Source of the DNA: Acaryochloris marina MBIC11017
Lineage (GTDB): Bacteria; Cyanobacteriota; Cyanobacteriia; Thermosynechococcales; Thermosynechococcaceae
Direction of reading: 5' to 3'
DNA: 32,000 bases
NCBI RefSeq assembly: GCF_000018105.1
Contig: NC_009925.1
Location: forward strand, 4,860,001 to 4,892,000
The stretch's first letter is position 1. Each line of letters starts with the position of its first letter. The position numbers were made by a program, and so were the translations under genes. Shown here piece by piece: positions 1,026 to 27,635 of the stretch. The notes beneath the pieces were generated by a model. It was not told the DNA's origin. It saw only the letters and a program-made list of their open reading frames with translations, and made no database searches.

Positions 1026-3399
<2,374 letters not shown>

Positions 3400-3640
3400 T
3401 TATGTCCCTTGGATTACAGCGTCTTTTATTAACCACCGACCTGCCAAGTGGTGGCTCACAGCCCTAATTATACCTTTGCAAACTGTAACAATTCAGAAAA
3501 TCTGAAAAAAATATAAAACTTTCTTCAATCAACCTGTTATCAAGCTCTGAAAATTAGCAGCTATATCATAATTAATTCGTTACCGGAACCCCAAGAGTTT
3601 GAGTGTAGGATCGAAAACCCAAAGACATAGGAATTTCTGG

Positions 3641-4180
3641 ATGTCGTCGAATGAAAAAACTAAAGTAGGGAACGCAACAGATGCCCTAACTGGACTAATG
3701 CTACCTGACTTGATTCCCGACCATCTCATTCAGCAACCGCAATGCGGCATCACCATCTTGGACATCGACACATTTCGAGTTTTTACTGCATGTTATGGCT
3801 ATCAGGAAAGCGATGCAGTCCTCAGAGACTTAGCTCAGACCCTGCAAAGAATGGCTCCTGAACAATGTCATATTTTTCGATCCGCAGGGGATGAGTTCAC
3901 CATTCTGATGGAATACTTACCCATCAATCAGTTGCTAGATTTTGCATTTAAACTGAGTAAGGCGATTAAGGCACAGTTTGCTCATTACCCAGCGGGAAAG
4001 TATTTTTATTTGATCAAAGATAAGCCAAGTTCTCGGATTCAGAGTATTCCATTGACCGTTTCTTGCGGCGTCGCTCTTTATCCAGATCATGGAAACAGCT
4101 ACGCATGGATAAAAGAAGCGATATATCAGGCCTGGTACATTCAAGGGAAGCGAGAAGTAGTGACTTCCCTGCCACTTTAG
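3641..4180 (+). CDS. Stand-alone degenerate GGDEF-domain protein (AGDEF variant)
   Basis: ORF 3599..4180 opens on TTG; the first ATG is at 3641. GGDEF-domain landmarks appear in order: DALTGL, ILDIDTFRVFTACYGYQESDAVLRDLAQTL (a DxD-F..N..GH..GD..L-like block in which N/H are replaced by T/Y), and RSAGDEF in place of RxGGDEF. No sensor domain or TM segment is present. Confidence 0.55.
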   Translation: MSSNEKTKVGNATDALTGLMLPDLIPDHLIQQPQCGITILDIDTFRVFTACYGYQESDAVLRDLAQTLQRMAPEQCHIFRSAGDEFTILMEYLPINQLLDFAFKLSKAIKAQFAHYPAGKYFYLIKDKPSSRIQSIPLTVSCGVALYPDHGNSYAWIKEAIYQAWYIQGKREVVTSLPL

Positions 4181-5390: not shown

Positions 5391-6557
5391 TCAGGTAGCT
5401 GAAGCAATGCCTAAATCCTGATAGAAGGAGAATAGACGTTTGAACACCACATTTTCGTCGTATTCGGCTTCTACTCTCTGTCGCCCCGCGGCTCCATAGG
5501 CTGTTCTTAAGTCTGGATCTGCCAACAAGGGCCGTAGAGCGTTGGCCAAAGGCGTACTTGTTTGGGACGGTACGATTTCTCCGGTTTGGCCTGGAAGAAC
5601 AGCCTCCCGACACCCCCGAATATCCGTTGTCACCACGGGCACACTCATAGCCATCGCTTCCAGAATGGAACGGGGTAATCCCTCATGGGCAAAAGTTGCC
5701 AGGACAAAAATATCCATTAACCCTAGCATTTCGGGAATATCCGTTCGATCCCCAGTAAACGTGACATGGGACTTGAGGTTCAGCTGTTCAATTTTTTCAG
5801 ACAGCTGGTGGTAATAGGGTTCTGGATCAGACTTGAGTTCCCCACCCACCACTAAAATATGCAGTTGGGGAAATTCCTCTACTAACTGTGCTGCCGCTTC
5901 AATTAAATAGCCACTGCCTTTGGTTCGGGTTAATCGCCCAACTGTACCGACAATCAGTTTGGCAGAGGCTGGAATTCCTAACTCATCTCGCAAACGAGAT
6001 TGGTGATCTGAATCTAAAACACTGCGACTAAATCGATCAATATCAACTCCATTACCGAGGTAGACCAGTTTCGATTCAGGGCACAACTTCTTTTGGGCAG
6101 CCGTCTCTATATCTTCATGGTTTTGGGACAGAATTAAGTTGGTGATTTTTGCACATCCATACTCAATCGCAAAATACATCTGGTATTGCAGAGGTGGAGT
6201 CAATTGATGAAACGGCAGACCGTGGGAGGTATACACAATTGTGGGCACCCCAGCCAGCTTTGCTGCAATACGTCCCAACACCGCAGCAATCGGGGTATGA
6301 ACATGGACTAGATCGTAAGCTTGCGATCGCATCAACTGAATCAGACCCTGTATAGTCTTGAAGTTTAACAGGGGCGAAATCTTACGATCAATTTGAATCG
6401 GGTGAACCGTATACCCCTGGGCCTGTAGACGATCGACGGCACTATCGGGGGAGCAAGCAATATCAACCGTAAGATGTTGCGATCGCAAGTAATCAATTTG
6501 AGGCAATAACAACGTTTCCGCCGTGGCTCCCAAAGCGCAAACATGTAAAACTTTCAT
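5391..6557 (-). CDS. Glycosyltransferase family 4 (GT-B fold)
   Basis: 388 aa with a typical GT4 layout. The N-terminal half starts MKVLHV. The C-terminal half carries GRLTRTKG...FVLATFAHEGLPRSILEAMAMSVPVVTTD (the E-x7-E region). It contains two HIP1 sites, so it looks native and lies on the edge of the polysaccharide island. Confidence 0.85.
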   Translation of the reverse strand: MKVLHVCALGATAETLLLPQIDYLRSQHLTVDIACSPDSAVDRLQAQGYTVHPIQIDRKISPLLNFKTIQGLIQLMRSQAYDLVHVHTPIAAVLGRIAAKLAGVPTIVYTSHGLPFHQLTPPLQYQMYFAIEYGCAKITNLILSQNHEDIETAAQKKLCPESKLVYLGNGVDIDRFSRSVLDSDHQSRLRDELGIPASAKLIVGTVGRLTRTKGSGYLIEAAAQLVEEFPQLHILVVGGELKSDPEPYYHQLSEKIEQLNLKSHVTFTGDRTDIPEMLGLMDIFVLATFAHEGLPRSILEAMAMSVPVVTTDIRGCREAVLPGQTGEIVPSQTSTPLANALRPLLADPDLRTAYGAAGRQRVEAEYDENVVFKRLFSFYQDLGIASAT

Positions 6558-6603
6558 TCCTTCTTTGTTTACCCCTCTTCTTACTCAAGTAGACTTTTAA
6601 AAA

Positions 6604-8027
6604 ATGGGCAAAGGACTGATGCGAAAAAAGATACAAAAAGCTATTTCACTACTATGGAGCTGTATTTTTTTATCAGCATACTTTAATGCTAGTACCAATA
6701 GAACCATTGCTGCTGAAATAACCAGCACACAATCTCGACAATATGAAAAGAGCAACGAAGACTTCCCCAATCCAGAACGCGGTTTTTTTTTCCATATAGC
6801 CCTTGGGGAACTCAACTTCGCCCTTCCCTTAAGCTACATGAGCTGCAAAAGTTAAGAACCCAAAACATAACATTAGCGCGAAGAATCTATCTCATCTCTG
6901 AGTTTAGAACACAACCTTTATCGCAATCATTCCTAGATAAAGTATCTACGGATCTTGCAACAGCCCGAAAGGCCGGGATAAAGCTAATCATCAGATTTGC
7001 CTACAATTGGCTGGGAGGAGGGGAAGACACCTCAGTAAAGAGAATAAGTTTTCATTTGGATCAGTTAGAGCCAATACTGAAAAACAATTATGACGCTATT
7101 GCTTATCTAGAAGCAGGATTTATTGGATACTGGGGGGAATGGAATCGATCAACTAATGGACTACGAACTAACCCTCAAGCAAGAAGAAAAATATTACAAA
7201 AATTACTATCCGTTCTGCCTCCCCAACGAATGGTCGCTCTAAGATATTCCTATTACAAAGGTGATATTTTTAACCAACAACGACCGCTCTCTGAGAGCGA
7301 AGCCTTCAATAGAAGCGGTAGAGCTAGAACCGGAGCACATAATGATTGCTTTCTAGCTGGAATCGACGATTGGGGTACGTATAGCCACACCGATCCGAAG
7401 ATTATTAACCAGCAAAAGGCATTTTTGAACTCAGATAACCGATATCTAGTACAGGGTGGGGAAGTCTGCAATCCTAGCCCTTATGATGACTGTCCCAATG
7501 CACAAAAAGAGCTAGCCTACATGCGCTGGAGTACATTAAATGGCTTTCCTTCAGATGGGAAAAGTATATTGGCCGACTGGGTGACTCAAGGCTGTATGGC
7601 CAATATCAAGCGTCGCCTCGGTTATCGGTTTCGCTTACTCAATGCAGAAATGTCCAACAAAATTGCCGCTGGTGAACCGTTTGCCTTAAACCTTTCAGTC
7701 ATAAATGAGGGCTGGGCTACTGCCTATAATCCTCGAAAGTTAGAAATTATTCTTCGCCACAAATCAACAAGACGGAACTATACTCTACTTACAGAAGAAA
7801 ATCCTCAATTTTGGATGCCTGGGCAAAAGACCACTATCAATATCATTGCCAAAACTCCCAGTACCTTACCATCGGGGACATATGAAGTATTTTTGAACCT
7901 TCCAGATCCATCGAAGGAATTATCGCATCGGCCAGAGTATTCGATCAGACTAGCAAATAAAGGCACTTGGGAAGAAGATGATGGATTCAATTCACTACAA
8001 ATGAATCTAATCATTCGAAGCAAGTAA
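6604..8027 (+). pseudogene. Secreted DUF4874/DUF4832 (glycoside-hydrolase-like TIM barrel) protein, split by a -1 frame change at a T9 run
   Basis: ORF 6604..6855 encodes a signal peptide followed by NPERGFFF, the conserved start of DUF4874, and then terminates. I translated the -1 frame by hand from the T-run. It is open from 6747 through 8027 and reads FFFPYSPWG..LRTQNITLARRIYLISEF..ARKAGIKLIIRFAYNW..HLDQLEPILKNNYDAIAYLEAGFIGYWGEWNRS. That is the expected continuation of the family into ORF 7056..8027. Confidence 0.75.
6783..6791 (+). repeat. T9 homopolymer at the frame junction of the DUF4874/DUF4832 gene
   Basis: Direct count: g6782, then t6783..t6791, then c6792. The upstream reading frame has codon starts at 1 mod 3 and the downstream frame at 0 mod 3. 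Confidence 0.95.
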
Positions 8028-8099
8028 ATCGCATTCAAGAGCTTTAAAAAACACTTTATTTAACTTCTGATTAACCTCAGAAATATTTAGGAAAGGTAG

Positions 8100-9485
8100 A
8101 TGGAGCAAAGTAAACCACAGAAACTATTTTCTTCCCTAAAAAAAATAAAGAATAGCTCCCTAAATAACCAGATTTTCAGTGCCACACTGATTGTAGTGAT
8201 GCTGACAGTAGGTGTCAAAATTGCTTCATTTATTAAAGATCTTGTTGTGGCTTGGCGTTTTGGCACCAGAGATGAGTTAGATGCCTTTCTGATTGCTTTG
8301 GTCGTTCCATCTCTACTCAGCAATGTTGTCGCATCTTCTTTTAACTCTGCCCTTATTCCTACCTATATACAGCTTAGAGAAACTAGAGGAATATCTGCAG
8401 CAAATAAGCTATTCTCCAATTTGATGGTCTGTGTTCTTATAATACTAAGCCTACTATCAATATTGATGTTAGGTTTTGCTCATTTATATTTGCCACTTCT
8501 TGCAGCAGGCTTTGATGAACAGAAACTAGCTTTAACGTTTAGAATACTGTGTATCATTTCTCCTATCATTCTCCTAGACGGAATCATTTGTAATTGGCGA
8601 GCAGTATTGAATGCGGAAGAAAATTTTACTGTAGCTGGTGTTGCACCAATCTTTACACCCATTGTGACCATTATTCTCCTTATACAGGTTCATTCATGGG
8701 GTGTTTATACTTTAGCAGTTGGATTATGTGCTGGGATGATCTTAGAGATACTAGCAATAGGACTCACACTCAGTAGAAAAGGGATTCCACTCATCCCCAA
8801 ATGGCAGGGGTGGGACGACAATTTAACCCATATTTTTAAGCAATATCTCTTGGTCTTATCTGGAGCTGTTTTGCTTTGCAGTGCCGTTCCAATTGATCAA
8901 GCGATGGCAGCAATGCTATCCCCTGGGAGTGTGGCCTCACTAAACTATGGGAATAAAGTAATTGCTGCTCCCATGGGGCTTTTTACCAGTGGTTTAACAG
9001 CTTCAATCATACCGTATTGCTCAAAAATGTATGCCAATGGAGACTGGATAAAAATCAGGCAAACGTTTAGACAAAACCTAGGCTTAATTGTCCTCATTGG
9101 CATCTCCTTAACTATACTAACAATTCTCTTTTCAGAGCCAATTGTTCAATTTATTTTTCAGAGAGGTTCTTTTGTTGAAAAAGACACTAAAATTGTTAGC
9201 CAAATACAATCTTTATACTCTCTGCAAATTCCATTTTATATCGGAAATCTATTTTTAATTCGTCTAGCCAGTTCGATCAAGCAAAATCATCTTCTCTTAT
9301 GGGTTTCCGGTTTAGATCTCATCATAAATATAATCCTTAATTATATATTTATCAATATGATAGGAATCAAAGGAATAGCACTTTCAACTAGTATTGTCTA
9401 TGTATTTTCTTTCTTTTTTCTCTTCCTAAAAATCAACAAGTACACGAGTCAAGAAGCCAATAATTTAAATGCTGCGAACCATTGA
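8100..9485 (+). CDS. MurJ/MviN-family (MOP superfamily) polysaccharide/lipid-linked oligosaccharide flippase
   Basis: 461-aa polytopic membrane protein. The N-terminus has the MurJ pattern (KIASFIKDLVVAWRFGTRDELDAFLIALVVPSLL..ALIPTY). It sits among glycosyltransferases and has a GAAAGG Shine-Dalgarno-like motif upstream of the ATG. Confidence 0.8.
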   Translation: MEQSKPQKLFSSLKKIKNSSLNNQIFSATLIVVMLTVGVKIASFIKDLVVAWRFGTRDELDAFLIALVVPSLLSNVVASSFNSALIPTYIQLRETRGISAANKLFSNLMVCVLIILSLLSILMLGFAHLYLPLLAAGFDEQKLALTFRILCIISPIILLDGIICNWRAVLNAEENFTVAGVAPIFTPIVTIILLIQVHSWGVYTLAVGLCAGMILEILAIGLTLSRKGIPLIPKWQGWDDNLTHIFKQYLLVLSGAVLLCSAVPIDQAMAAMLSPGSVASLNYGNKVIAAPMGLFTSGLTASIIPYCSKMYANGDWIKIRQTFRQNLGLIVLIGISLTILTILFSEPIVQFIFQRGSFVEKDTKIVSQIQSLYSLQIPFYIGNLFLIRLASSIKQNHLLLWVSGLDLIINIILNYIFINMIGIKGIALSTSIVYVFSFFFLFLKINKYTSQEANNLNAANH

Positions 9486-9602
9486 GGCAAGCATCTAGTG
9501 GAATTTTTATACTAAGAATAAACTTATAGATTTAAATAATTATTAGATAAAATAATCCATAAGCGAACCGACCTGCACAACTAATATTCCACATGTAAAG
9601 TC

Positions 9603-10718
9603 ATGAAACATTTAGCTTTTTTTCTGCCAACTCTTCACGGTGGAGGTGCCGAGAAAGTAGTTATTGCCTTAGCCAATGGCTTTATTGAAAGAGGTATACC
9701 GATTGATTTAGTACTAGTCAATTCAGAAGGTGAATATTTTAATCAGATTAATTCCGAAGTTAATATTGTCGATCTCCAGCAAACCAGAGCTTTAAAAGCT
9801 GTAATACCTTTAGTTAAGTATTTACAAAGCTCTAAGCCATCTGTACTCATCTCCCACATGAGCCGGGCTAATCTTGCAGCCATCATAGCCAAAAAATTGT
9901 CCAGGGTAGATACGTCTCTAATCTTAGTGGAGCACAATACCCTATCTGCCACTCAGTCAAAATTATTCCGGGCTAAATTATTTCCATTCTTCATGAAACT
10001 GCTATATCCCCAAGCTGACACAATTATTGGTGTTTCTCAAGCAGCGTCAAGAGACTTAGAAAAATCATTAAACTTGAAGGCAGGGTGCATTCAAACGATA
10101 TACAACCCAGTTGTAGATAAGACCTTAGGTTTAATGGCGGAGCAACCCATACAACATCAATGGTTAGAAATTGGATCCCCTCCTGTATTTTTGGCAGTCG
10201 GTAGATTGACTGCACAAAAAGATTTCGATACCGCCATCAATGCATTTGCAATTGTCAGAAAAAAAATTCCCTCCCGGCTCATGATTTTAGGTGAAGGGGA
10301 ACTGAGACCACACATTGAATACCTTATTTCCACCCTCGATATTGCCCAAGATGTGCTTATGCCGGGTTTTGTGCAGAATCCGTTCGCATATATGAGTAAA
10401 GCAGCAGCATTTATCCTATCGTCTCGATGGGAAGGATTAGGGAATGTTCTGATTGAAGCAATGGCATGTGGCACTCCAGTTATTTCCACTAATTGCCCCC
10501 ATGGACCAAAAGAAATCTTGGAAAATGGCAAATATGGCCAATTAGTGCCTGTCGGTGATGCGAATGCCCTCGCCAAAGCCATGCAGAACGTCTTAGAAAC
10601 CCCCATAGATTGTGAACGTCTGATTGAAAGAGCTAATTACTTTTCAGTCGAGCGTGCAATCACTCAATATCTATCAGTTATTGGCATTAACGAACCCTTG
10701 AAACAATCAACTCTATGA
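9603..10718 (+). CDS. Glycosyltransferase family 4
   Basis: 371 aa. MKHLAFFLPTLHGGGAEKV at the N-terminus, and GRLTAQKDF...FILSSRWEGLGNVLIEAMACGTPVISTN (E-x7-E) in the C-terminal half. Its stop overlaps the next gene's start (ATGA). Confidence 0.85.
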   Translation: MKHLAFFLPTLHGGGAEKVVIALANGFIERGIPIDLVLVNSEGEYFNQINSEVNIVDLQQTRALKAVIPLVKYLQSSKPSVLISHMSRANLAAIIAKKLSRVDTSLILVEHNTLSATQSKLFRAKLFPFFMKLLYPQADTIIGVSQAASRDLEKSLNLKAGCIQTIYNPVVDKTLGLMAEQPIQHQWLEIGSPPVFLAVGRLTAQKDFDTAINAFAIVRKKIPSRLMILGEGELRPHIEYLISTLDIAQDVLMPGFVQNPFAYMSKAAAFILSSRWEGLGNVLIEAMACGTPVISTNCPHGPKEILENGKYGQLVPVGDANALAKAMQNVLETPIDCERLIERANYFSVERAITQYLSVIGINEPLKQSTL

Positions 10719-12076
10719 TCCTATTAGCTTATCTTGGGCTAGTCATTTTCATTGTTATATTTGAACTCATCAGGGATAAACAGACTTTAATTGATTTCCT
10801 AAGTTTTTTTAATGTTCTTTTCTGCTTGGCATTTCCTTTGCCAGGCATATTCTTACTTCTTTCAGAGCACAGCAACCTAAATACATCTATCCTCAAAGGA
10901 ACGACGATTAACCTTAATAGTTTTCAAGTCCCTTTACTGATTTTTTTGACTTATTTTTTTGTTGCCATAGGATTCCATTTAGACTCTGCGACTAATTCTG
11001 CCAATAGAATTTATATCAAAGAAAAAAATAGTGGGCATTTTGTTTTCACCTATGCACTAATTTTATTGTTAATATCTTTTTCCTCGATCGTAGTCTATAG
11101 CGTTCAAAATGGTGGACTTATCAATGCAATTTCTAATGCATCTTTACTCCGTTCTACCGTTATTGAAACACCTCAATTCTCTTTAGTTAAGAGATTCTTC
11201 TTGCTATCTTTTATGGGATCTTTCTTGATATCTTCTATCCTATTCAATGATAAGTCAAAGGGAAGAAGTATTCAATTGTTGATTATATTTATATTTTCAA
11301 TTTCTATTTCTCTGCTTTCTTTTTTCCTAATTGCAACCCGCGCAAATGTTCTAAGATATTTACTCACATTCTATTTGGTATATTCCATCAGAAAAGGTAA
11401 ACACTCCTTGGGTGTTGTAATATTCTTTATTACATTACTGGCAATCATTTCTTCTTACGGGAAAGAAATATTTGGGAGTTTAATCTACCTTTCAGATGGT
11501 ATTGATGCTGTTACGGATAATTTTCAGAATAGTGTTGATGCAAATATACAGTCAGAAAGCGACCCATCTAACGTACTGGATGAATTCAGTGCTCCATTTT
11601 TCTCAATATTTGCAGCTACAAACTCCACCTATGAACTCAGGCTGTTGAGTGACTGGTTCTATGGATTAGCATCCTTTCTTCCTGATCGGATTTATGAAGC
11701 ACCACCAACTGTCTCTTATTACAATACAAATTTCTTAGTTAATACGGATAAATATGAAATTCCGTCTGGCTTTATCTCTTCATGTTTATATAGTATGTCT
11801 TGGCCAGGATTAATTATTTTTAGTTTATCCTACGGATGGATAGGGAGATTTATCCAGCAAGTCACTTATAATCATTCACTTGAAATTCATTGGATGCAAT
11901 ATATATATGTCTACTCTGCATTAGTTTGGTCAGACTATACGATATATGCAGATCCCAAAATATTACTACAAACACATTTTTGGTTTTTTATTTCATGTTT
12001 CTTTCTGATTGTATTATCAAGTAATTTATTTATATCTGATAAATATTCAATTGCAAGAATGAGGTCAGATAAGTGA
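10715..12076 (+). CDS. Putative O-antigen/EPS polymerase (Wzy-like polytopic membrane protein)
   Basis: 453 aa, very hydrophobic, with about 10 or more predicted TM segments and one larger hydrophilic loop (DAVTDNFQNSVDANIQSESDPSN). It has no recognisable enzymatic motif. It is translationally coupled between two GT4 genes, with a 4-nt overlap at each end. The call rests on context and topology only. Confidence 0.5.
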   Translation: MILLAYLGLVIFIVIFELIRDKQTLIDFLSFFNVLFCLAFPLPGIFLLLSEHSNLNTSILKGTTINLNSFQVPLLIFLTYFFVAIGFHLDSATNSANRIYIKEKNSGHFVFTYALILLLISFSSIVVYSVQNGGLINAISNASLLRSTVIETPQFSLVKRFFLLSFMGSFLISSILFNDKSKGRSIQLLIIFIFSISISLLSFFLIATRANVLRYLLTFYLVYSIRKGKHSLGVVIFFITLLAIISSYGKEIFGSLIYLSDGIDAVTDNFQNSVDANIQSESDPSNVLDEFSAPFFSIFAATNSTYELRLLSDWFYGLASFLPDRIYEAPPTVSYYNTNFLVNTDKYEIPSGFISSCLYSMSWPGLIIFSLSYGWIGRFIQQVTYNHSLEIHWMQYIYVYSALVWSDYTIYADPKILLQTHFWFFISCFFLIVLSSNLFISDKYSIARMRSDK

Positions 12077-13206
12077 AGAACACAAAAACGATATTATTTA
12101 TAATCACAAACTTTGATAGAAATGGAGCGCAAGTCATACTCTATAATATCTTGTCCAAAATAGATCGCTCACTTTTTAGGCCAATTGTTATTTCTTTAAT
12201 GAGTACCTCTGATTTCAATAATCAATTTCAAGAATTAGAAATCCCCATATATGCATTAGGGATGCAACAAAGACTTCCCAATATAACTCACTTTTCTAAA
12301 TTAGTTTCAATTATCAAAAAACATCAGCCAGATATCATCCAAGGGTGGATGTACCATGGCAATATTGCTAGCTGTTTTGCCTCTTTATTCTGTTCTCACT
12401 CACCTCCAGTAATATGGAGTATCCACCACTCAATAAATGAACTCTCAGCTGAGAAATTACTCACTCGACTCTTGATCAGAATGGGAACCTTACTTTCTTC
12501 GTTTACCAGAGAAATAGCTTATGTTTCCAAAACGAGTCAAGAGCAGCATGAAAAACTAGGATATGCGACTCAAAAAAGTTGTGTTATACCCAACGGCTTT
12601 GATACTTCGCTATTTGTCCCTTCTGCTGAAAAAAGGAACGCTTTTAGAAATGAACTTAACTTAACAGAAGCAGAGACTGTGATTGGTATCGCTGCCCGAT
12701 ACCATCCTATGAAGGATCATCATAATTTTCTTACGGCTGCAGCGCTACTTGTCCCAAAATTTCCTAACGTCCATTTTGTCCTTGTGGGGGATGGAGTAGA
12801 TGAATCCAACACAACCTTAACTGAATTAGTCAAAACAGCAAGACTTCAACAGCATGTTCATTTGCTTGGCAAGCGAATAGACATGCCAAATATTTTCGCA
12901 GCCTTAGATATATTGACCTCTGCTTCTGCATATGGGGAGGCTTTTCCATTAGTCGTTGGTGAAGCGATGTCTTGCCAAGTGACCTGTGTGGTAACAGATG
13001 TTGGAGACTCAGCTTTTCTAGTTGGGGATACGGGGATAGTGGTACCAACTAAAGATCCTGAATCCCTAGCGAATTCTTGGAGTACATTAATCACACGAAC
13101 TCCCGAGCAGAGATTTCTGATGGGAAAAGCCGCCAGACAAAGAATTCTTGACTCTTTTTCATTAGAGTCAATTGTGAAACAGTATGAGGGCATGTATGTA
13201 AGCTGA
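12073..13206 (+). CDS. Glycosyltransferase family 4
   Basis: 377 aa with a GTG start overlapping the upstream stop (GTGA). GT4 C-terminal signature: ARYHPMKDH...ILTSASAYGEAFPLVVGEAMSCQVTCVVTDVGD. Confidence 0.85.
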   Translation: MKNTKTILFIITNFDRNGAQVILYNILSKIDRSLFRPIVISLMSTSDFNNQFQELEIPIYALGMQQRLPNITHFSKLVSIIKKHQPDIIQGWMYHGNIASCFASLFCSHSPPVIWSIHHSINELSAEKLLTRLLIRMGTLLSSFTREIAYVSKTSQEQHEKLGYATQKSCVIPNGFDTSLFVPSAEKRNAFRNELNLTEAETVIGIAARYHPMKDHHNFLTAAALLVPKFPNVHFVLVGDGVDESNTTLTELVKTARLQQHVHLLGKRIDMPNIFAALDILTSASAYGEAFPLVVGEAMSCQVTCVVTDVGDSAFLVGDTGIVVPTKDPESLANSWSTLITRTPEQRFLMGKAARQRILDSFSLESIVKQYEGMYVS

Positions 13207-13323
13207 GAGTATACCTATGGCCAAAATCTCTCAAGATTGAAGACCTCATAGAAAATTTACGCCTGGCCGGAAGGATAGTTTTCCCATCGCTGTAGAGATG
13301 AAACTATCAAATTATCTCAACCC

Positions 13324-14931
13324 TCATGAGGCAAGGGATGAAATAATGGCAATGACGCGATCCAAATCTGCATCTGTCATGCCAGAACCAGACGGCAAGC
13401 AAATACCATTATTAAACAAATCTTCGGACACTGTACCGCCAATATGGTCGCATTGAGCAAACAGTGGCTGCAGGTGCAAAGGTTTCCAAACGGGTCGGGA
13501 CTCAATTTGATGATCCCGTAGAGCTTCTTGGACCCTATTTCGGCTCACTCCAAATTTGCGAGGGTCAATCAGCATACAGGATAACCAGTGCGTTGCCCGT
13601 CCGAAAGTGGGCTCCGGCATTAAGGTTAACCCAGGTAATGACCCCAGATCTTGAAGATATCGATGATAGATGCGACGTCGGGCAGCGACTTTTTTGGATA
13701 AGAGCCTGAGTTGGCCCCGACCTATACCCGCTAAGACATTACTAAGACGATAGTTATATCCCAAGTGGGAATGTTGGTAATGAGGAGCTATATCTCTGGC
13801 TTGTGTCGACAAGAAACGAGCTTTGGCAATTAACGTGGCATCTTCTGAAACCAACATTCCTCCACCAGAAGTAGTGATAATTTTATTGCCATTAAAAGAG
13901 AACACTCCCAGTCGGCCAAAGGTGCCCGTAGCTTTGCCCTGATAGGTTGCTCCCAGAGATTCAGCAGCATCCTCAATCAGGGGAATATCGTACTCATTGC
14001 AGAGTTCTAAAATCGGTCCAAGATCCGCACTTTGACCGTATAAATGGACTAAGACAACGGCCTTTGGTAATTTACCTAGGCGAGCTCGCTGTCTTAAGGC
14101 CTGCGAGAGTAAGTTAGGATCCATATTCCAGGAGGTGCGTTCGCTGTCTATAAAAACAGGCACTGCCCCTTGATACAGAATCGGATTCGCGCTAGCAACA
14201 AAGGTTAGCGTCGAACAAAATACTTCGTCACCCGGTTCAACGCCTACCAGCTGCAACGCTAGATGTATGCCAGCCGTACCTGAACTCAGGGCTGCTGCAT
14301 GGGAAATTCCCACTGCTTCACTAAATTCCTGTTCAAAGGCATCTAAATGTGGCCCTGCAGGCGCAATCCAATTGGTTTCAAACGCATTCACCACAAAGCC
14401 CAACTCATCTGTACCCAAATGTGGTGGAGATAGAAGAATTGGGGGTGCTGTTTTTTGGATATCAAGGTCTGAATGGTCAGCAATATTAGGTTCGCTGGTA
14501 TCGGGAGTTCTATTATCTGAGGTTTCAGATTGAAAGTGTTGCAAGAAAAAGTTAACGGTATCTTGCTGAATCCAACCTTTTCGCACAGAAATTTCCCCAA
14601 ATTTGAGATCAGACTGCTCCTGAACTTGGAGAATTTCAGAAATTTGACGTTCATCTAGTAGATCAGCTGCTTGCAGATATTGTCCAATAGGCTGATAAGC
14701 AGATTGTGTTAGGAGTTGTGGAAATTTATCTACAAAAAAATGGATGGTGGACGTTTTTAAGGTACCTTGCGAAGCTAGAATTTCGCCAATTTTGAGATTG
14801 TTGCATTCTGCCTGCGTTTGCAACGCTTTTTCAAGCTGCTGAGTAGAAACTAAGCCCGCTTTTTTGAGAATAGATCCTAATGGTTTGAATGGAGTTTTAG
14901 TGATAGAGCGATCTAAAGGAGTATGTAACAT
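13324..14931 (-). CDS. DegT/DnrJ/EryC1/StrS-family sugar aminotransferase with an N-terminal tandem MshEN/T2SSE_N-like domain pair
   Basis: From about aa 165 (counted from the ATG at 14931) to the end it is a typical PLP sugar aminotransferase: HAAALSSGTAGIHLAL, LIEDAAESLGA, and SFNGNKIITTSGGGML with the Schiff-base Lys. Residues 17-133 are an internal duplication with a period of about 64 aa. The ORF track starts at the GTG at 14973; I prefer the ATG at 14931 (MLHTPLDRS). Confidence 0.85.
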   Translation of the reverse strand: MLHTPLDRSITKTPFKPLGSILKKAGLVSTQQLEKALQTQAECNNLKIGEILASQGTLKTSTIHFFVDKFPQLLTQSAYQPIGQYLQAADLLDERQISEILQVQEQSDLKFGEISVRKGWIQQDTVNFFLQHFQSETSDNRTPDTSEPNIADHSDLDIQKTAPPILLSPPHLGTDELGFVVNAFETNWIAPAGPHLDAFEQEFSEAVGISHAAALSSGTAGIHLALQLVGVEPGDEVFCSTLTFVASANPILYQGAVPVFIDSERTSWNMDPNLLSQALRQRARLGKLPKAVVLVHLYGQSADLGPILELCNEYDIPLIEDAAESLGATYQGKATGTFGRLGVFSFNGNKIITTSGGGMLVSEDATLIAKARFLSTQARDIAPHYQHSHLGYNYRLSNVLAGIGRGQLRLLSKKVAARRRIYHRYLQDLGSLPGLTLMPEPTFGRATHWLSCMLIDPRKFGVSRNRVQEALRDHQIESRPVWKPLHLQPLFAQCDHIGGTVSEDLFNNGICLPSGSGMTDADLDRVIAIISSLAS

Positions 14932-15193
14932 CGATTTAGCAATCTCATGAAGGAAATGAACATGGACGCACACGAGAAACTAATTTAGAACTGGGAATCC
15001 CATGAGACTTGAACAAAAGATTTCGCCATTAATGCACTCAATCTTCGTGAAGTCCTTTTAGTGCATTATTTTGGCTAGGTGATCTAGCCTACATAGTCAC
15101 TGTTCTAAATTTTAGATATCTTGAGGAGCTGATATTGAGTGACATAAGAGGCTCTCACTCAGAAAAGACCGCACTCAAATGCCTTGTGACACT

Positions 15194-15225
15194 TCACTCC
15201 GCTTGAATGACCGATGCTCACTCCG
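15194..15225 (+). repeat. Direct repeat TCACTCCG x2, 24 bp apart, within a cluster of four CACTC motifs
   Basis: TCACTCCG occurs at 15194..15201 and 15218..15225. CACTC also occurs at 15156 and 15172. TGAGTGA (15136..15142) and TCACTCA (15155..15161) form a 7-bp inverted repeat. Confidence 0.6.
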
Positions 15226-16177
15226 TAACGACAGTAAGGATATGAGCAAGGGGGATGATTAGAATGTTTGAACTAGTTGCGTCACCAAAACCATCACCCC
15301 CCAGAATTGTTGATGTAAAGAATAAGTTGGACGCTTTTTTATTTCAAGTCTTGTGGAAATATGAAGTATCCTAAATCAAATCTACCATAATCTTTGTGTT
15401 CCTTGGCACAAGAAACTGTGCTTTCGTCACCAAGATTTACTAATGAGCATCTAACTATCTGTTTTAGGGCAAAAAATGGATGTAGATTTTTTTGTACTGA
15501 AAAGTGGTTTTATTTCAGGATCAAAATTTAATCTATACAGAATTACATGTACATATTTTTTTAAGATCAAGTAAAATACCTAATAAGCTTAAAATACCTA
15601 CGGCTAGCACTAAAAATACTCAACACGATTGTTGAGATAGCCAAATTTGTAATATGAATAGCTATTTATATAACTATCACCCTAGTTATATCCTCAAAAA
15701 AGTAAGATTTTTTTGGTCGGAATTATTATTGAATTTAGAGATGTGATATGAAAATGATCTAATTTGAAATAAACTCGTTAATACACTCTAATAATATATC
15801 TTGAAAATAAAATTCATGAGAAGCTGAATGTCAAAATCATCTATCTATTAGAAAATAAGATTTATTTAATGGTTAGTAAATGAAATTATGTGCATTCTTC
15901 TTATACTCATTTACCATTTGTACTAATACCGTTCTAGGCGATGAGGTTTTACTCAGACGACTAAAAATAAAGACTTATAAAAATAGTGGTATTCCAATTC
16001 CCCGTAGGACTTCATACAATTTACCTCTTCCATTTGGAATGAATATGTAGCAGGTATCATTATTAGATTGTCAATGCCTTATACTTGTAAGATAAGAATC
16101 CATAAAGTCAGCAGATGTGAAAATCAAGTTAGTAAGACCAATGATTACTATAAAATAGTGGAGGGAAGACCATACAA

Positions 16178-16198
16178 ATTTTGAATACTATTCAAAAT
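16178..16198. repeat. Perfect 9-3-9 inverted repeat ATTTTGAAT-ACT-ATTCAAAAT
   Basis: Read directly. The arm 16178..16186 is the exact reverse complement of 16190..16198. Confidence 0.85.
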
Positions 16199-16287
16199 GT
16201 ATTTAATACAAGAGATATGTCAGCTTCTATAACGATAAATCTCACTATGCTTAGGTTAATTGGATAACTAACTTAGTAAGTCTGAAT

Positions 16288-16299
16288 ACTCTTAAGAGT
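16288..16299. repeat. Perfect 12-bp palindrome ACTCTTAAGAGT
   Basis: Read directly. TGAATACT, which immediately precedes it, also occurs at 16182..16189 inside the 9-3-9 repeat. Confidence 0.85.
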
Positions 16300-16339
16300 G
16301 AACTTGGATAAATATGAAATAAGCAATCAACTGCCTTTT

Positions 16340-16355
16340 TGTAACTAGCAATACA
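16340..16355. promoter_or_regulatory. Candidate NtcA-type site TGTA-N8-TACA
   Basis: The sequence is tGTAactagcaaTACa, an exact match to the extended NtcA consensus. It lies about 355 nt upstream of the wzc-like start. There is no good TAN3T -10 box at the canonical ~22-nt spacing; the nearest candidate is CAAAAT, 18 nt downstream. Confidence 0.25.
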
Positions 16356-16711
16356 ATTGAGATTCAATTCAGCAAAATCTTGGAACAGTCGCTATGGTTT
16401 CTTTGAGAGTAAAATATCCCGAGCGAGTTCAGGAACAACTACTTCACTTCTAATACTAAGATGACAGAGTCAATAGAATTTTATTGATGAATGATAGTGA
16501 TCAAGTCCAGCATAAATATCATCTATATTGGGACATGCATTCTCTTGAATGCTTTATCTGACTAACTAATGATTGAGCATCAGCTTAAACATGTATAAGT
16601 AAATATATCCGCTTTTTTAAAAGCTAGATAAAAATAAGAGTTAGAGCTGAGGAATTAGAAAATTATTAATGTCTTTTTCTACATTTTTTTGCACAATAGG
16701 AGTTGGCATCA

Positions 16712-19324
16712 GTGTTAGCCTCCCAAATCAGTAAATCAAGGAAATTTAGGCTAATCCTTCAACGCCATTGGCTACCATCTTCAGTAGCGTTCACTTTGGT
16801 GCTAACCCTCGGAACACTCGCAATAAAGTTGCTGTACCAGCCTCTCTATGTCGCTGAGGGCCAATTGCGATTTACAAAAGTGAACCCCATTTCTAAACTC
16901 ACTACATTAGGTACCGAAATTGGGAATTTAGATCCCCTTGATTTAGAGGGCAGGCCCCTGGAGACCGAATCTGCTGTCATCCAGTCCACGCCCCTTCTGC
17001 AAACAACCTTAAACAAACTAAGTACCCAGGAGGATATCGATTACTCACTAGATCTCAAAGGTTTTCGGCAAAATTTTGTTATTTCAGATGTAAAGGGAAC
17101 AGATATTCTCCGAATTACCTATAAATCCATTAATTCTGAGCATGCTGCTGCTGCAGTCAATCTACTCATGCAGGTTTATCTTGAAAACCATCTTCAAGAC
17201 AATCGCAATTCTATTGAGACTGCTAGTAAATTTATCTCAGAACGAATTCCTCAATCAGAAAAGACTGTTCAAAATGCTGAAAGAGCACTCCGACAATTTA
17301 AGCAGAAAAATCAGATTGTAGATCTTAGTAACCGGGAGCAAGATGCCGAAGCAAAAATTGCTGAATTACAAGGAAAAATCAGTGACGCCCAAGCTCAAAT
17401 TGCACAACTCCAAACTGAAGCCAATGTACTAAGTAATCAATTGGGCATGACGCCGCAACAAGCCATGGCAGCAGTTAGCCTAAGCCAATCTGCCGAGATT
17501 CGCGATGTGCTCACCCAGTTACAACAAACTGAGTCTCAGCTCGCCCTACAGACTAACCAGCTTACGGCTACTCACCCTACGGTTCTTGGTTTAGCCCGGG
17601 ATGTAAACAAATTAAAAGCTCTATTCCAACAACGTGCTGAGAAAATACTGGGGACAAAAGTAGCCGCCCCTGAATCCTTGATTGGTTCCCTGCAAGAAGA
17701 GTTGACTGCTGATCTCGTCAAATTAGAGGCTCAAAGACAGGGATTAGTCAGTCAGGTCATTGCCCAATCAAACACTTTAGAATCCTATAAACAACAACTC
17801 AACATTTTCCCTGGCTTGGCAGAAAAGCAGCGAGAATTAGAGCGAAAACTAGAGGCAGCACAGTCTACCTATGCTTTACTCTTACAAAAACAGCAAGAGA
17901 TTTTAGCTGAGGCAAATCAAACAGTAGGGAATGCGAGAGTTTTGGTACCAGCCCAAATTCCAAAGTCGCCAGTTACGCCGAATCAAGCAGACTATTTAGC
18001 AACCGGATTATTAGGGGTGTTAGCCTTCTTTGCTACTGCCTACATATTGGAAACTCTGGATAAATCCATTCGGACTGTCGAAGACGCCGTTCATCAATTT
18101 GAGTATCCTCTATTGGGGGTCATTCCCGCGTTCGGGAATTCTAATAATTCACTATTTTACGATGGGGGATTACAACAGTTAGCTCCTAAACTTTTCCTCA
18201 GAGATTTTCCTGATTCACCAGTCAGTAACGCCTTTCGAATGCTACAAGTTAGCCTAAAATCGGTACAAACGGGTCGCCATTGCCAAACTTTAGTGGTGAC
18301 GAGTACATCACCCCAAGAGGGTAAATCAACGGTGGTCGCAAATTTGGCTATGGCCCTTGCCCAGGCAGGAAATCAAGTTCTGGTTGTCGACGGTAATCTT
18401 CGAAATCCGTTTCAAGACCGTATGTGGGATGTCCTGAATGAATTCGGTTTAAGCAATGTCTTGTTTGGACAAGCTGATTTAGATTCAGCGACTCAATCGG
18501 TCACTGCCCATGTGGATGTGATGACAGCGGGTAATCTTCATGCCAATGCCATGGGGACCTTAGAATCCAAACACATGACTGTAATGCTAAATGCAGCAAA
18601 GTCCATTTATAACTACATTCTAATTGATGCGCCTTCGTTAAATTCAGCTGCAGATGTATCCATTTTGGGAGGGCAAGCGGATGGCATTGTGATTGTGGTT
18701 AAACCTGGTATTGCTAACCTTCCTAATATAGCTGCCGCAAAAGAGCTATTGATGCGTTCTGGGCAACGAGTCACGGGGCTAATTATCAATGGGGCTTTAT
18801 CACAGGATCAACCCTATGGAGACTTCCAAGTTCACCCCATGAACGGTCAGGTGCCCCCCCAACCATTGCCAACCCCATCCCCTAGTATTTCGTTCAATCA
18901 AAATCCTTTCCCCAATTACACCCCTGAAGCCCCATCGCAGGTTTTAGTGCAGTCGAATGGCCCAACCCCAGAAGAACTCCCGTTGCGGGATTTGCAAGAT
19001 CAAGTTGAACATTTGCGGGCAGTCTGGATTCGATCGGTTCAGTTTGTAGATGAACAAGAAGAAGAGCTTGTTCAACTGCACCATACAGTGTCTGACCTAC
19101 AAGAGCAGATCCGCGACGCAGGAGGTTACTCCCACAGTTCTTCGGCAGCGACGGATCTGATTCGGTTAGAACTTCGGTTGGCCCATGAAAAAGAACGGTT
19201 ACGCTTGTTTGAAAAAACTTTGGCTGGGCAACGGCAACGTTTACAGTCCCAGCAGGCGGTTTTTCAACATCACCTAGGACTACTTCAGCGACGTATAAAA
19301 CGGATTGTAGGCCATCTCGATTAG
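16712..19324 (+). CDS. Wzc-like polysaccharide co-polymerase (PCP-2a) with BY-kinase-type P-loop ATPase domain and an atypical C-terminal tail
   Basis: N-terminal TM helix, then a long coiled-coil periplasmic region and the GNVR-type motif (TVGNARVLVPAQ). A second TM helix follows (LATGLLGVLAFFATAYIL). The ATPase motifs are Walker A TSPQEGKST, A-prime VLVVDGNLRNP and Walker B YILIDAPS. The ORF opens at TTG 16703, but the GTG at 16712 sits 9 nt after AGGAG (16698..16702), so I prefer it. Confidence 0.85.
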   Translation: MLASQISKSRKFRLILQRHWLPSSVAFTLVLTLGTLAIKLLYQPLYVAEGQLRFTKVNPISKLTTLGTEIGNLDPLDLEGRPLETESAVIQSTPLLQTTLNKLSTQEDIDYSLDLKGFRQNFVISDVKGTDILRITYKSINSEHAAAAVNLLMQVYLENHLQDNRNSIETASKFISERIPQSEKTVQNAERALRQFKQKNQIVDLSNREQDAEAKIAELQGKISDAQAQIAQLQTEANVLSNQLGMTPQQAMAAVSLSQSAEIRDVLTQLQQTESQLALQTNQLTATHPTVLGLARDVNKLKALFQQRAEKILGTKVAAPESLIGSLQEELTADLVKLEAQRQGLVSQVIAQSNTLESYKQQLNIFPGLAEKQRELERKLEAAQSTYALLLQKQQEILAEANQTVGNARVLVPAQIPKSPVTPNQADYLATGLLGVLAFFATAYILETLDKSIRTVEDAVHQFEYPLLGVIPAFGNSNNSLFYDGGLQQLAPKLFLRDFPDSPVSNAFRMLQVSLKSVQTGRHCQTLVVTSTSPQEGKSTVVANLAMALAQAGNQVLVVDGNLRNPFQDRMWDVLNEFGLSNVLFGQADLDSATQSVTAHVDVMTAGNLHANAMGTLESKHMTVMLNAAKSIYNYILIDAPSLNSAADVSILGGQADGIVIVVKPGIANLPNIAAAKELLMRSGQRVTGLIINGALSQDQPYGDFQVHPMNGQVPPQPLPTPSPSISFNQNPFPNYTPEAPSQVLVQSNGPTPEELPLRDLQDQVEHLRAVWIRSVQFVDEQEEELVQLHHTVSDLQEQIRDAGGYSHSSSAATDLIRLELRLAHEKERLRLFEKTLAGQRQRLQSQQAVFQHHLGLLQRRIKRIVGHLD

Positions 19325-25715: not shown

Positions 25716-27635
25716 CTAACTCTTTTGTTGCAACATGGCCTGGTACCTGCCCAAAGCCGTTAAGGGAAAATGCTGCTGGTAAAGGTGATATTTCAGATAG
25801 AAATGGCCGGGAAAACCAGTCCCTGTGAAATAGTCTTCATCCCAAGTGCCATCCATCTTTTGCGTCGTCGTGAGGTAATTCACGCCCCGCTCAATTGCAG
25901 CCTCGGCATAGACAGAGGTCGCTTCCCCCGCCGACAATAGCCCCATAATAGCCCAAGCCGTTTGGGAGGCTGTGCTAGGACCTTGGCCTTTAAGCTTAGG
26001 GTTATCGTAGCTGGCACAAGTCTCGCCCCAACCCCCATCCGTATTTTGGCAACTTACTAACCAAGCTGCTGCTTGCTGAATTTGGGATTGCCAGCCCTGG
26101 GGATCGATCAAGGCTAGAGCAGCCAGTACGCCACTCGTGCCGTAAATATAATTAACCCCCCAGCGTCCAAACCAGCACCCCTCCGGTTCTTGCTCAGTTC
26201 GCAAATATCGAAGGGCTCGATCCACACTGTTTTTCCCTGTTGTTTGATGGCAACGACCGATCATTTCTAACACTCGGGCCGTGACATCGGCAGTATTGGG
26301 GTCAATCATGGCTTTCAGATCCCCGTAGGGCAAGGCGTTCAGCCAGTCTTGATCATTATTGATATCAAAGGCAGCCCACCCTCCAGGACGGCATTGCATC
26401 GTGGCAATCCAGTTAACGGCTCTGGCAATGGCTGCATCCTTAGCCTGCTCGTCCGGTAGCTGGACTTCGTTTAAGGCCATGACCACAACGGCGGTATCAT
26501 CCACATCGGGATAAAAGCGATTGTCAAACTCAAAGGCCCAGCCCCCAGGTAAACCCCCTGGATTTTTCACGGACCAATCTCCGTAATCTAGGATTTGCTT
26601 ATTCAGCAGCCATTCTCCCGCTTTCACTAGGGCAGGATGATCGGGCGCTAACCCGGACTCAGCCAGCCCTCGCACGACCAAGGCCGTATCCCATACAGGA
26701 GAGATACAGGGTTGAATCCAATATTGGTCTTCGGTTTCGAGGGCAAAGGCATCCAGAGCTGCCATGCCCCGTTCAATAATCGGATCGTGGACATCATAGT
26801 CCAGGGCCTTAAGACCCAAAAGAGAATTGAGCATGGCCGGGATAATCCCTCCCCAATCCCCCGTTGCTTCTTGACGTTCCAAAATCCAACGTTCAGCAGC
26901 GCGAATTCCTTCTTCTCGAAAGGGGACAAGATTGGTCGATTCAGCAAATTTGAATAGGCCATCTAAATAGATAAAGGCATCGGTCCATTCGTTGCTGAGG
27001 GGCAGATCAAACTGGGCGCGATGGCGGCCTTCTACATAGAGTTCATCCAAGTTGAACCCAGCTTCCACGGCATAGACTGGCTCCCGATCCATCACGATCA
27101 GCAAGGGGACGGTGCTGCCCCTGGCCCAACTCGACATCTCATAAATGGTGAAAGGAAACTGTTCGGGCAACAACATCACCCAGGGCGGAAGAGAGGGAAT
27201 CCCTCGCCATTCATAGCAGCCAATCAGGGCTAAATGCAGCTTGGTAAACACGCGGGTGCGGCTAATTCCCCCATGCTCCAAAATAAACTGCCGTGCCCGC
27301 ACCATGGCCGGATCTTCCATGGGCACGCCTAAGAGCTTCAGGGCCATGTAGGCTTCGACAGAGACGCTGATTTCTCCCCCGTCGTCGAAGTAGAGTTCCC
27401 AGCCACCGTGGTCTCGCTGTTGCGATCGCAAATATGTTTCCACCTTCTCCAAGGGCCGACTACGATCTGTTCCCCAAATCTTGTGCAGCAGCACCACTTC
27501 AGAAGTAATCGAAACATTGGATTCAAGCTCTGCCCACCAATAGCCCGTCTCGTCTTGTTGGGTGAGCAGATAGCTTTGCGAAGCTGCGATCGCAGCTTCA
27601 AGGGTTTTGGGATTCACTCTGTCTCGAACAGCCAT
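25716..27635 (-). CDS. shc: Squalene-hopene cyclase
   Basis: 639 aa with the catalytic DVDDTA (DxDD) motif and multiple QW repeats (QQDETGYW, QQRDHGGW, QEATGDWGG, QCRPGGWA, QEPEGCWFGRWG, QNTDGGWGE, QKMDGTW). Confidence 0.95.
   Translation of the reverse strand: MAVRDRVNPKTLEAAIAASQSYLLTQQDETGYWWAELESNVSITSEVVLLHKIWGTDRSRPLEKVETYLRSQQRDHGGWELYFDDGGEISVSVEAYMALKLLGVPMEDPAMVRARQFILEHGGISRTRVFTKLHLALIGCYEWRGIPSLPPWVMLLPEQFPFTIYEMSSWARGSTVPLLIVMDREPVYAVEAGFNLDELYVEGRHRAQFDLPLSNEWTDAFIYLDGLFKFAESTNLVPFREEGIRAAERWILERQEATGDWGGIIPAMLNSLLGLKALDYDVHDPIIERGMAALDAFALETEDQYWIQPCISPVWDTALVVRGLAESGLAPDHPALVKAGEWLLNKQILDYGDWSVKNPGGLPGGWAFEFDNRFYPDVDDTAVVVMALNEVQLPDEQAKDAAIARAVNWIATMQCRPGGWAAFDINNDQDWLNALPYGDLKAMIDPNTADVTARVLEMIGRCHQTTGKNSVDRALRYLRTEQEPEGCWFGRWGVNYIYGTSGVLAALALIDPQGWQSQIQQAAAWLVSCQNTDGGWGETCASYDNPKLKGQGPSTASQTAWAIMGLLSAGEATSVYAEAAIERGVNYLTTTQKMDGTWDEDYFTGTGFPGHFYLKYHLYQQHFPLTALGRYQAMLQQKS

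Follow-up and report, generated by a model that had tools for sequence, protein, structure and literature searches.

The window analysed here is a 32,000-nucleotide stretch of the Acaryochloris marina MBIC11017 chromosome, and the element in question is a minus-strand gene within it that encodes a 535-residue (aa) sugar aminotransferase of the DegT family with an N-terminal extension (Table 1). The extension carries two tandem repeats of the MshEN_N type, the N-terminal half of the cyclic di-GMP (c-di-GMP) receptor domain MshEN, and an acidic linker joins them to the catalytic domain. The gene lies in a polysaccharide locus that spans ~5391–19324 and also codes for three GT4 proteins, a DUF4874/4832 protein, a MurJ/MATE-like flippase, and a Wzc-like protein. 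Taken together, the evidence supports describing the extension as a tandem pair of MshEN_N-type domains on an intact DegT aminotransferase.

The ATG at 14931 serves as the start codon in all eight orthologous clusters (P0001–P0008), and an identical 535-aa product is called from it in 23 public contigs, one of them the 6.4-Mb chromosome AP026075.1; an alternative in-frame GTG at 14973, which would add 14 residues, is not kept in the orthologues. Positions 14440–14931 of the minus strand hold the codons for residues 1–164. The closest unfused homologues (~70% identical, 375–390 aa) begin at a residue that matches fusion residue ~162, which puts the length of the extension at ~162–165 residues, in keeping with the ~165 extra residues claimed in a preliminary description of this DNA. 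The DegT assignment made there also holds, with the Pfam family DegT_DnrJ_EryC1 (PF01041) matching residues 174–530 of the product (E 1.4e-96, model positions 5–359 of 360).

In the full-length AlphaFold model (predicted template modelling score, pTM, 0.66), both parts are folded, and residues 135–160 have a predicted local distance difference test (pLDDT) score of ~30. The low-complexity acidic segment pointed out earlier as joining the module to the catalytic domain thus corresponds to a linker that is predicted to be disordered. The model does not place the module against the enzyme with confidence, and an allosteric interface between the two cannot be claimed from it. Linker identity between orthologues is 15–30%, and the ratio of nonsynonymous to synonymous substitution rates (dN/dS) between the window gene and its orthologues is 0.8–1.05 across these ~30 residues, compared to ~0.06–0.07 for the module and ~0.035 for the enzyme, all rough values with dS near saturation. 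By this measure, the module is under purifying selection and the linker evolves neutrally.

Table 1 Coordinates of the fusion gene, its parts and the features around it (window positions)
Feature	Position	Strand	Remarks
(MshEN_N)2-linker-DegT aminotransferase fusion gene	13324..14931	-	535 aa; from the open reading frame (ORF) list
Unstructured N-terminal tail, residues 1–16	14884..14931	-	pLDDT <50 in both models; dN/dS ~0.33
Repeat 1, residues 17–70, MshEN_N-like	14722..14883	-	half-motifs 17–40 and 47–70; 6-residue spacer
Repeat 2, residues 81–133, MshEN_N-like	14533..14691	-	half-motifs 81–104 and 110–133; 5-residue spacer
Acidic low-complexity flexible linker, residues 134–165	14437..14532	-	pLDDT ~30; low orthologue identity
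Predicted nucleotide-sugar 4-aminotransferase domain (PglE/EpsN/LegC-like), dependent on pyridoxal 5′-phosphate (PLP), residues 166–535	13324..14436	-	PF01041 and PglE match
Catalytic Lys350 codon	13882-13884	-	NGNKIITT aligned with PglE
Conserved non-coding stretch upstream of the fusion gene	15247..15534	-	70–76% identical to the L002 and L024 upstream regions
Inverted segment: fusion gene and ~600 bp of upstream DNA	13324..15534	.	blastn against L024 and L002: coordinates reversed, both flanks collinear
Wzx/Wzy-type polysaccharide cassette	5391..13206	.	GT4, DUF4874/4832, MurJ-like flippase, GT4, 453-aa multi-pass protein, GT4 (Pfam)
Wzc-like co-polymerase/ATPase (GNVR, AAA_31/ParA, HmpF-like C-terminus)	16703..19324	+	Pfam

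Fold and family of the tandem module

The two internal repeats put forward in the preliminary description align to each other with 37% identity and 63% positives (BLASTP E 2e-12), far beyond chance. When the four half-motifs are scored against the strict MshEN motif RLGxx(L/V/I)(L/V/I)xxG(L/V/I)(L/V/I)xxxxLxxxLxxQ, matches are found at 9, 4, 6, and 5 of 11 positions. With the relaxed census motif of Wang et al., [RKPN]hGxxhhxx[GAS]hhxxxxhxxxhxx[QNKRYWST] (24 residues, 11 key positions), the scores are 10, 9, 9, and 9, the misses being K23, T57, F70, Q87, D90, S115, and F133. Two half-motifs of the GSPII-C domain of PilF, scored likewise, reach 11 and 9 of 11, bearing in mind that GSPII-C has three motifs and that the scored pair may not be the one forming its site. 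The second half-motif of each fusion repeat ends in Phe (F70, F133) rather than Gln.

The NCBIfam model NF053729 (‘cyclic di-GMP-binding domain, MshE-related’, 53 positions, cut-off 38 bits) matches the whole protein over two stretches with 63.6 bits, and each repeat also passes when scored singly (42.3 bits for repeat 1, 39.4 bits for repeat 2). A weak, sub-threshold Pfam match to DUF4388 was also seen (16.9 bits). In the PDB, the single sequence retrieves Thermus thermophilus PilF (E 1e-6) and Vibrio cholerae MshE (5HTL, E 0.02). A 30-sequence profile of the wider family matches MshEN-type N-domains only: PilF (E 3e-9), Geobacter PilB (E 6e-6), MshE (E 6e-6), and Myxococcus PilB (E 1e-4).

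An AlphaFold2 model of the module (residues 1–136, from an alignment of nine orthologues; pLDDT 85.6, pTM 0.76) possesses eight helices, at 18–24, 30–42, 48–54, and 60–74 in repeat 1 and at 82–88, 94–106, 111–117, and 123–133 in repeat 2. The best Foldseek matches of this model in the PDB are all PilF GSPII/MshE, with local root mean square deviations of 1.4–2.1 Å over 51–54 residues at 29–31% identity. The four-helix arrangement of MshEN, proposed earlier as the standard by which to judge the fold, is thus predicted twice over, in the order short, long, short, long. In the position where a full MshEN has MshEN_C, repeat 1 is followed by a second MshEN_N and then by the disordered linker. Judged by its sequence, the protein is therefore of the MshEN_N-only class and not a full MshEN; Wang et al. 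2016 list MshEN_N-only architectures as a class of their own. The 53-residue bipartite motif and the fold are shared with V. cholerae MshEN and with GSPII-B and GSPII-C of PilF. Unlike MshE and PilF, the window protein lacks MshEN_C (T2SSE_N1) and the secretion ATPase, carries MshEN_N in tandem, and has second half-motifs that end in Phe. Further copies of the module were sought across the window, for example in the Wzc-like and pentapeptide proteins, and none was found.

A full HMMER search with the orthologue profile against 1.84 billion representatives returned 1738 proteins at E ≤1e-3 and 142 at E ≤1e-30, nearly all spanning both repeats; the window module itself scores 245 bits against the profile of its own clade. 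Members range from 124 to 1036 aa, with the module at either terminus. Among 63 longer members, the partner domains are TPR (23), pentapeptide repeats (4), WecG/TagA/CpsF (3), FHA (3), AAA_35 (3), and Alg14 (2), and a genome scan found equally varied partners in metagenome-assembled genomes (MAGs) of Pleurocapsa, Microcoleaceae, Lyngbya, and Myxosarcina. The module is thus, by homology, a copy of an abundant and promiscuous cyanobacterial (MshEN_N)2 cassette and was not invented here. This architecture is exemplified by cce_1044 of Cyanothece sp. ATCC 51142 (Wang et al. 2016, Suppl. Table 4), whose repeats in the alignment of those authors align with both repeats of the window protein. The two share the two-repeat module and its consensus, KPLGxxLQxAGL.S..Q...AL..Q ... 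R/K-h-GEIL ... TxDFF, twice; cce_1044 is a stand-alone module, whereas in the window it is tethered to a DegT aminotransferase by a flexible linker.

The DegT fusion is rare. The extension is present in 8 of 8000 scored DegT homologues (P0001–P0008, 61–98% identical), and among 185,579 species-representative genomes (GTDB) one DegT fusion was recovered, in an Acaryochloris sp. MAG (L002). In twelve module-bearing metagenome loci from the Joint Genome Institute (JGI) and in 15 further genome loci, the cassette is attached to other proteins and never to DegT. A 201-aa fragment, P0124, comprises a more divergent module, a linker, and the first ~30 DegT residues (PILLSTPHMGEQELAFV), after which the sequence degenerates; it may represent another fusion lineage, or else a copy that has been truncated or frameshifted. 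The survey of the architecture thus yields eight clusters, a single named MAG (Acaryochloris), and the P0124 fragment. A query of a 5.8-billion-protein index with the 165-residue N-terminus returned nothing, which reflects the limit of a word index for short queries and not biology.

The preliminary description knew of no described example of this fusion, and we likewise found none in the searchable literature: full-text searches for MshEN with aminotransferase, or c-di-GMP with DegT, gave nothing relevant, the architecture table of Wang et al. 2016 does not include a DegT fusion, and the fusion is not among the A. marina MBIC11017 entries in their alignment. The fusion is rare and conserved. 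Taken separately, receptor module and enzyme are both well described, and the promiscuity of MshEN_N is established.

The survey also turned up the (MshEN_N)2 cassette at the C-terminus of a WecG/TagA/CpsF glycosyltransferase in Microcoleaceae and Lyngbya MAGs (L007 5236–6411, L008 3960–5135, L011 2916–4091; NF053729 72.7 bits). This is a second and apparently undescribed fusion of the cassette to an enzyme of glycan synthesis.

The aminotransferase and its locus

The best PDB match of the enzyme is Campylobacter jejuni PglE (1O61, E 5.8e-93), with an end-to-end alignment. Within the motif NGNKIITT, K350 aligns with the Schiff-base Lys, the residue mutated in 4ZTC, and K350 and the PLP-site residues are invariant in 36 homologues, fused and unfused. 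The aminotransferase active site is, on these alignments, intact. The top NCBIfam equivalog is the LegC family TIGR04181, with 377.9 bits below its cut-off of 420; other equivalogs (PseC, ArnB, and others) all fall far under their cut-offs. The enzyme is accordingly assigned as a putative PglE/EpsN/LegC-like 4-aminotransferase, its exact substrate being inferred. The product is most likely a UDP-4-amino-4,6-dideoxy-N-acetylhexosamine (HexNAc)-type precursor for a Wzx/Wzy-dependent surface polysaccharide.

In catalytic domain and Lys, the window enzyme resembles the UDP-4-keto-6-deoxy-HexNAc 4-aminotransferases PglE of C. jejuni and EpsN of Bacillus subtilis, and its closest unfused homologues, 70% identical, bear the JGI name EpsN. 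Neither PglE nor EpsN has a regulatory domain at its N-terminus. A different N-terminal extension of the same enzyme type is seen in the 781-aa protein P0009, in which two DegT-type domains stand in tandem and the C-terminal one is closely homologous to the window enzyme.

In the polysaccharide cassette next to the fusion gene, the 453-aa multi-pass protein has no Pfam match and is Wzy-like by position. The Wzc-like protein does not possess a C-terminal tyrosine cluster. Its HmpF assignment comes from precomputed annotation of the identical gene in loci L018–L021 (PF28019; L018 5609–8221). The HmpF domain is known from a motility protein of cyanobacteria. In loci L001, L002, L023, and L024, the fusion gene and the Wzc-like gene point in the same direction, the former ~130–160 bp upstream of the latter, and this pair is kept while the glycosyltransferase/flippase/polymerase cassette differs between loci. 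The conserved non-coding stretch upstream of the fusion gene (Table 1) is probably a promoter or leader.

A window segment of ~1.3 kb at ~15535–16840 has no counterpart in L024 or L002; it is AT-rich, with a GC content of ~0.32, and does not contain a convincing ORF. No c-di-GMP riboswitch or any other Rfam family was detected in the window or in the 1.7-kb upstream gap, at gathering scores and at E up to 1, and scans for promoters and terminators performed no better than on shuffled sequence. The GC content is 0.32–0.40 at ~8000–13200 (cassette; 0.33–0.40 over ~8000–13000) and 15000–17000 (gap), compared to 0.45–0.52 in the flanks, and cassette gene content varies among the otherwise collinear loci L024, L023, and L022. 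Low GC and variable content are the pattern expected of a swapped, serotype-like polysaccharide cassette.

On contig JAHLSW010037718.1, one polysaccharide cluster is enclosed by two paralogous fusions, P0008 and P0005 (L022 10001–11623 and L001 10001–11626), which share 61–65% identity with the window protein. The cluster also codes for a Bac_transf initiating transferase, a formyltransferase, a PIG-L deacetylase, PhyH, and a FemAB-like protein, a content that fits a bacillosamine-like amino sugar. Remnants of the Bac_transf, formyltransferase, PIG-L, PhyH, and FemAB genes found in L001 were looked for in the window, and there were none.

Two further features of the window were recorded. A stand-alone GGDEF ORF at 3599–4180 (+), 193 aa from a TTG start and 179 aa in public assemblies, has the active-site motif SAGDEF, lies ~9 kb from the fusion gene, and occupies the same position in L018–L021; its product could either supply c-di-GMP locally or be a degenerate binder. 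Genes for SQS_PSY (squalene/phytoene synthase-family), flavin amine-oxidase-family, and squalene-hopene cyclase proteins at 1026–3393 (-) and 25716–27635 (-) flank the island, which thus sits between isoprenoid (hopanoid/carotenoid-type) genes.

Would the module sense c-di-GMP?

Given the homology of the module to a c-di-GMP receptor, we asked how well its ligand-contacting positions are kept. Gly at motif position 3 is present in all four half-motifs, is invariant in nine orthologues, and occurs at 92–97% in 151 family copies; in MshE, the backbone amides at motif positions 3–4 read guanine O6/N7 (Wang et al.). The hydrophobic positions 2, 6, 11, 12, 17, and 21 are likewise kept in the family, and Gln24 of the first half-motifs is found in 88–94% of the 151 copies. 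The preliminary description had worried that Pro in place of Arg at motif position 1 might cost binding, a concern that now carries little weight: Pro is the consensus residue of the family there (74–75%), it is permitted by the relaxed motif of Wang et al., and it is shared with GSPII-C of PilF, which has P335 at this position and binds c-di-GMP with a dissociation constant of ~0.46–0.5 μM (PMC11731258). GSPII-B, with K or L at the same position, binds at 2–6 nM (PMC11731258). Taking these positions together, we somewhat favor c-di-GMP binding by at least one repeat.

We give a probability of roughly 0.5 to the overall reading in which the two MshEN_N repeats act as a tethered sensor of c-di-GMP and steer amino-sugar supply; that the ligand binds, whether regulation is positive or negative, and which partner is involved are all inferred. 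In this proposal, an aminotransferase in an Acaryochloris-like lineage would have acquired the (MshEN_N)2 cassette at its N-terminus via a floppy tether of ~30 residues. The enzyme would be cytoplasmic and would supply precursor to a Wzx/Wzy-dependent surface polysaccharide. Each four-helix repeat of 53–54 residues might bind one c-di-GMP through Gly3 backbone amides and hydrophobic stacking, so that rising c-di-GMP would leave the module ligand-bound and ordered. The ordered module could then change its contacts, either with its own catalytic dimer, with steric autoinhibition relieved or imposed, or with a membrane-assembly partner, for which the Wzc-like neighbor would be the first candidate. 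In this manner, the assembly of repeat units would be coupled, through the supply of a dedicated 4-amino sugar, to a signal for the sessile state. The more specific version, that c-di-GMP binds the module and directly switches the aminotransferase on or recruits it to an assembly complex, we hold only tentatively.

Related systems bear on this proposal. Escherichia coli NfrB, a GT2 glycosyltransferase with a C-terminal MshEN, is like the window protein a receptor-type domain fused to a polysaccharide enzyme, and its NCBIfam models match both window repeats weakly. Its glycosyltransferase is activated via MshEN by c-di-GMP (PMC8669469), which sets a precedent for control of a fused polysaccharide enzyme by this messenger. 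NfrB is a membrane synthase with a full MshEN, acting at the polymerization step of a synthase-dependent pathway, whereas the window protein is predicted to be a soluble nucleotide-sugar-modifying enzyme upstream of Wzx/Wzy with MshEN_N only, duplicated and N-terminal. An MshEN_N-only unit on a component of a Wzx/Wzy-type exopolysaccharide system is also seen in the Methylobacillus EpsG-type tyrosine kinase (TIGR03029), which matches repeat 2 (residues 82–131, E 4.7e-6). EpsG carries a single MshEN_N on the kinase/co-polymerase; in the window locus, the Wzc-like protein has no module and the aminotransferase does. Occurrence of the same cassette on WecG/TagA and Alg14 enzymes shows that its wiring to early glycan steps recurs in cyanobacteria.

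A number of observations weigh against a c-di-GMP sensor. The single-repeat NF053729 scores clear the cut-off by just 1–4 bits, and global Foldseek E-values are weak (0.3–2) because the query is a double domain; the fold comparison was therefore based on local superpositions and on the statistics of the profile searches. Pfam T2SSE_N (PF05157), whose absence had been named beforehand among the grounds for abandoning the MshEN assignment, does not match the 535-aa product even at E up to 10. We rejected this absence as a refutation: the module consists of MshEN_N only, without the MshEN_C/T2SSE_N1 half that PF05157 largely covers. Within the motifs, the window clade departs from the wider (MshEN_N)2 family at two positions, and these matter more, on the alignments, than Pro-for-Arg. 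Residue 57 is T, A, S, or L in the nine orthologues and Trp in 84% of the family; its counterpart in MshE is F48, and F48K is blamed for the lost binding of Deinococcus geothermalis PilB_3. At residue 90, Asp stands where 78% of the family has Gly or Ala, which bears out the earlier remark on this residue of repeat 2. The family as a whole also differs from the MshE motif: W, L, or F closes the second half-motif in place of Gln, and the first half-motif has a polar residue at position 7. None of the cyanobacterial MshEN proteins has been assayed for c-di-GMP binding (PMC12448109), and cce_1044 is not in the binding table of Wang et al. As for regulation, the disordered, neutrally evolving linker argues against rigid allosteric coupling, and a tether or steric mechanism is favored over it. 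Finally, neither a 4,6-dehydratase nor an initiating Bac_transf gene was found in the window, so the pathway assignment is based on PglE/EpsN homology only.

The strongest rival explanation, which we regard as unlikely but well short of negligible, is that the module is a degenerate, ligand-independent MshEN_N pair that acts as a docking or oligomerization handle, for instance as a tether to Wzc-like or cassette-bearing proteins. The clade-specific T57 and D90 at family-conserved positions and the Phe that replaces the terminal Gln in both second half-motifs would fit such a loss of function, given that XpsE and D. geothermalis PilB_3 have lost binding through similar changes; a flexible, unconstrained linker is what a tether would have, many family members bear only interaction domains (TPR, pentapeptide, FHA), and the gene pairing with the Wzc-like protein is kept. 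Against docking alone, the most conserved residues of the module are the ones that contact c-di-GMP in MshE (Gly3 in all four half-motifs, the hydrophobic positions, and first-half Gln24), both repeats pass NF053729, and PilF GSPII-C binds in spite of similar deviations.

It is improbable that the module, with its altered second half-motif, binds another nucleotide messenger such as c-di-AMP, cGAMP, or another guanine nucleotide. The W, L, or F at position 24 of the family second half-motif, the A and V at positions 17 and 21 of the repeat-1 second half-motif, and the weak cGAMP binding by MshEN (Wang et al., Fig. 1h legend) could be read in this way; in contrast, the guanine specificity of MshE is conferred by amides at positions 3–4 and Gly3 is near-invariant here, MshEN does not bind c-di-AMP (Wang et al.), and there is no positive evidence for a different ligand. 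That the extension is an annotation or assembly artefact, with two adjacent genes merged or a mis-called start, has only the rarity of the architecture (8 of 8000 DegT homologues) in its favor and is effectively refuted by a single unbroken frame, seen here and again across independent assemblies and species (61–98% identity), with no stop codon or frameshift between module and enzyme, a start codon kept across orthologues, and a module under purifying selection.

The known direct c-di-GMP inputs to exopolysaccharide synthesis act on synthases, co-polymerases, and transcription (BcsA, Alg44, PelD, PgaCD, NfrB). A receptor on a soluble aminotransferase would put control at the committed precursor step, and would suggest post-translational gating of the Wzx/Wzy pathway, which has no single synthase to regulate. 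In the E. coli Nfr system, precursor supply is under transcriptional control only (PMC8669469). If the c-di-GMP sensor reading is true, the fusion would be, to our knowledge, the first known case of a second messenger post-translationally gating a Wzx/Wzy pathway at precursor supply; if binding has been lost, the locus documents a sensor cassette turned into nothing more than a docking domain. Diguanylate cyclases are numerous in cyanobacteria, and validated receptors are few. With its soluble, easily assayed enzyme, the fusion is a convenient model on which to test (MshEN_N)2 proteins in general, the WecG/TagA fusions among them, and by extension, were the sensor reading to hold, this family of 1738 representative clusters would make up a major class of receptors for c-di-GMP that has so far been missing from the cyanobacterial inventory.

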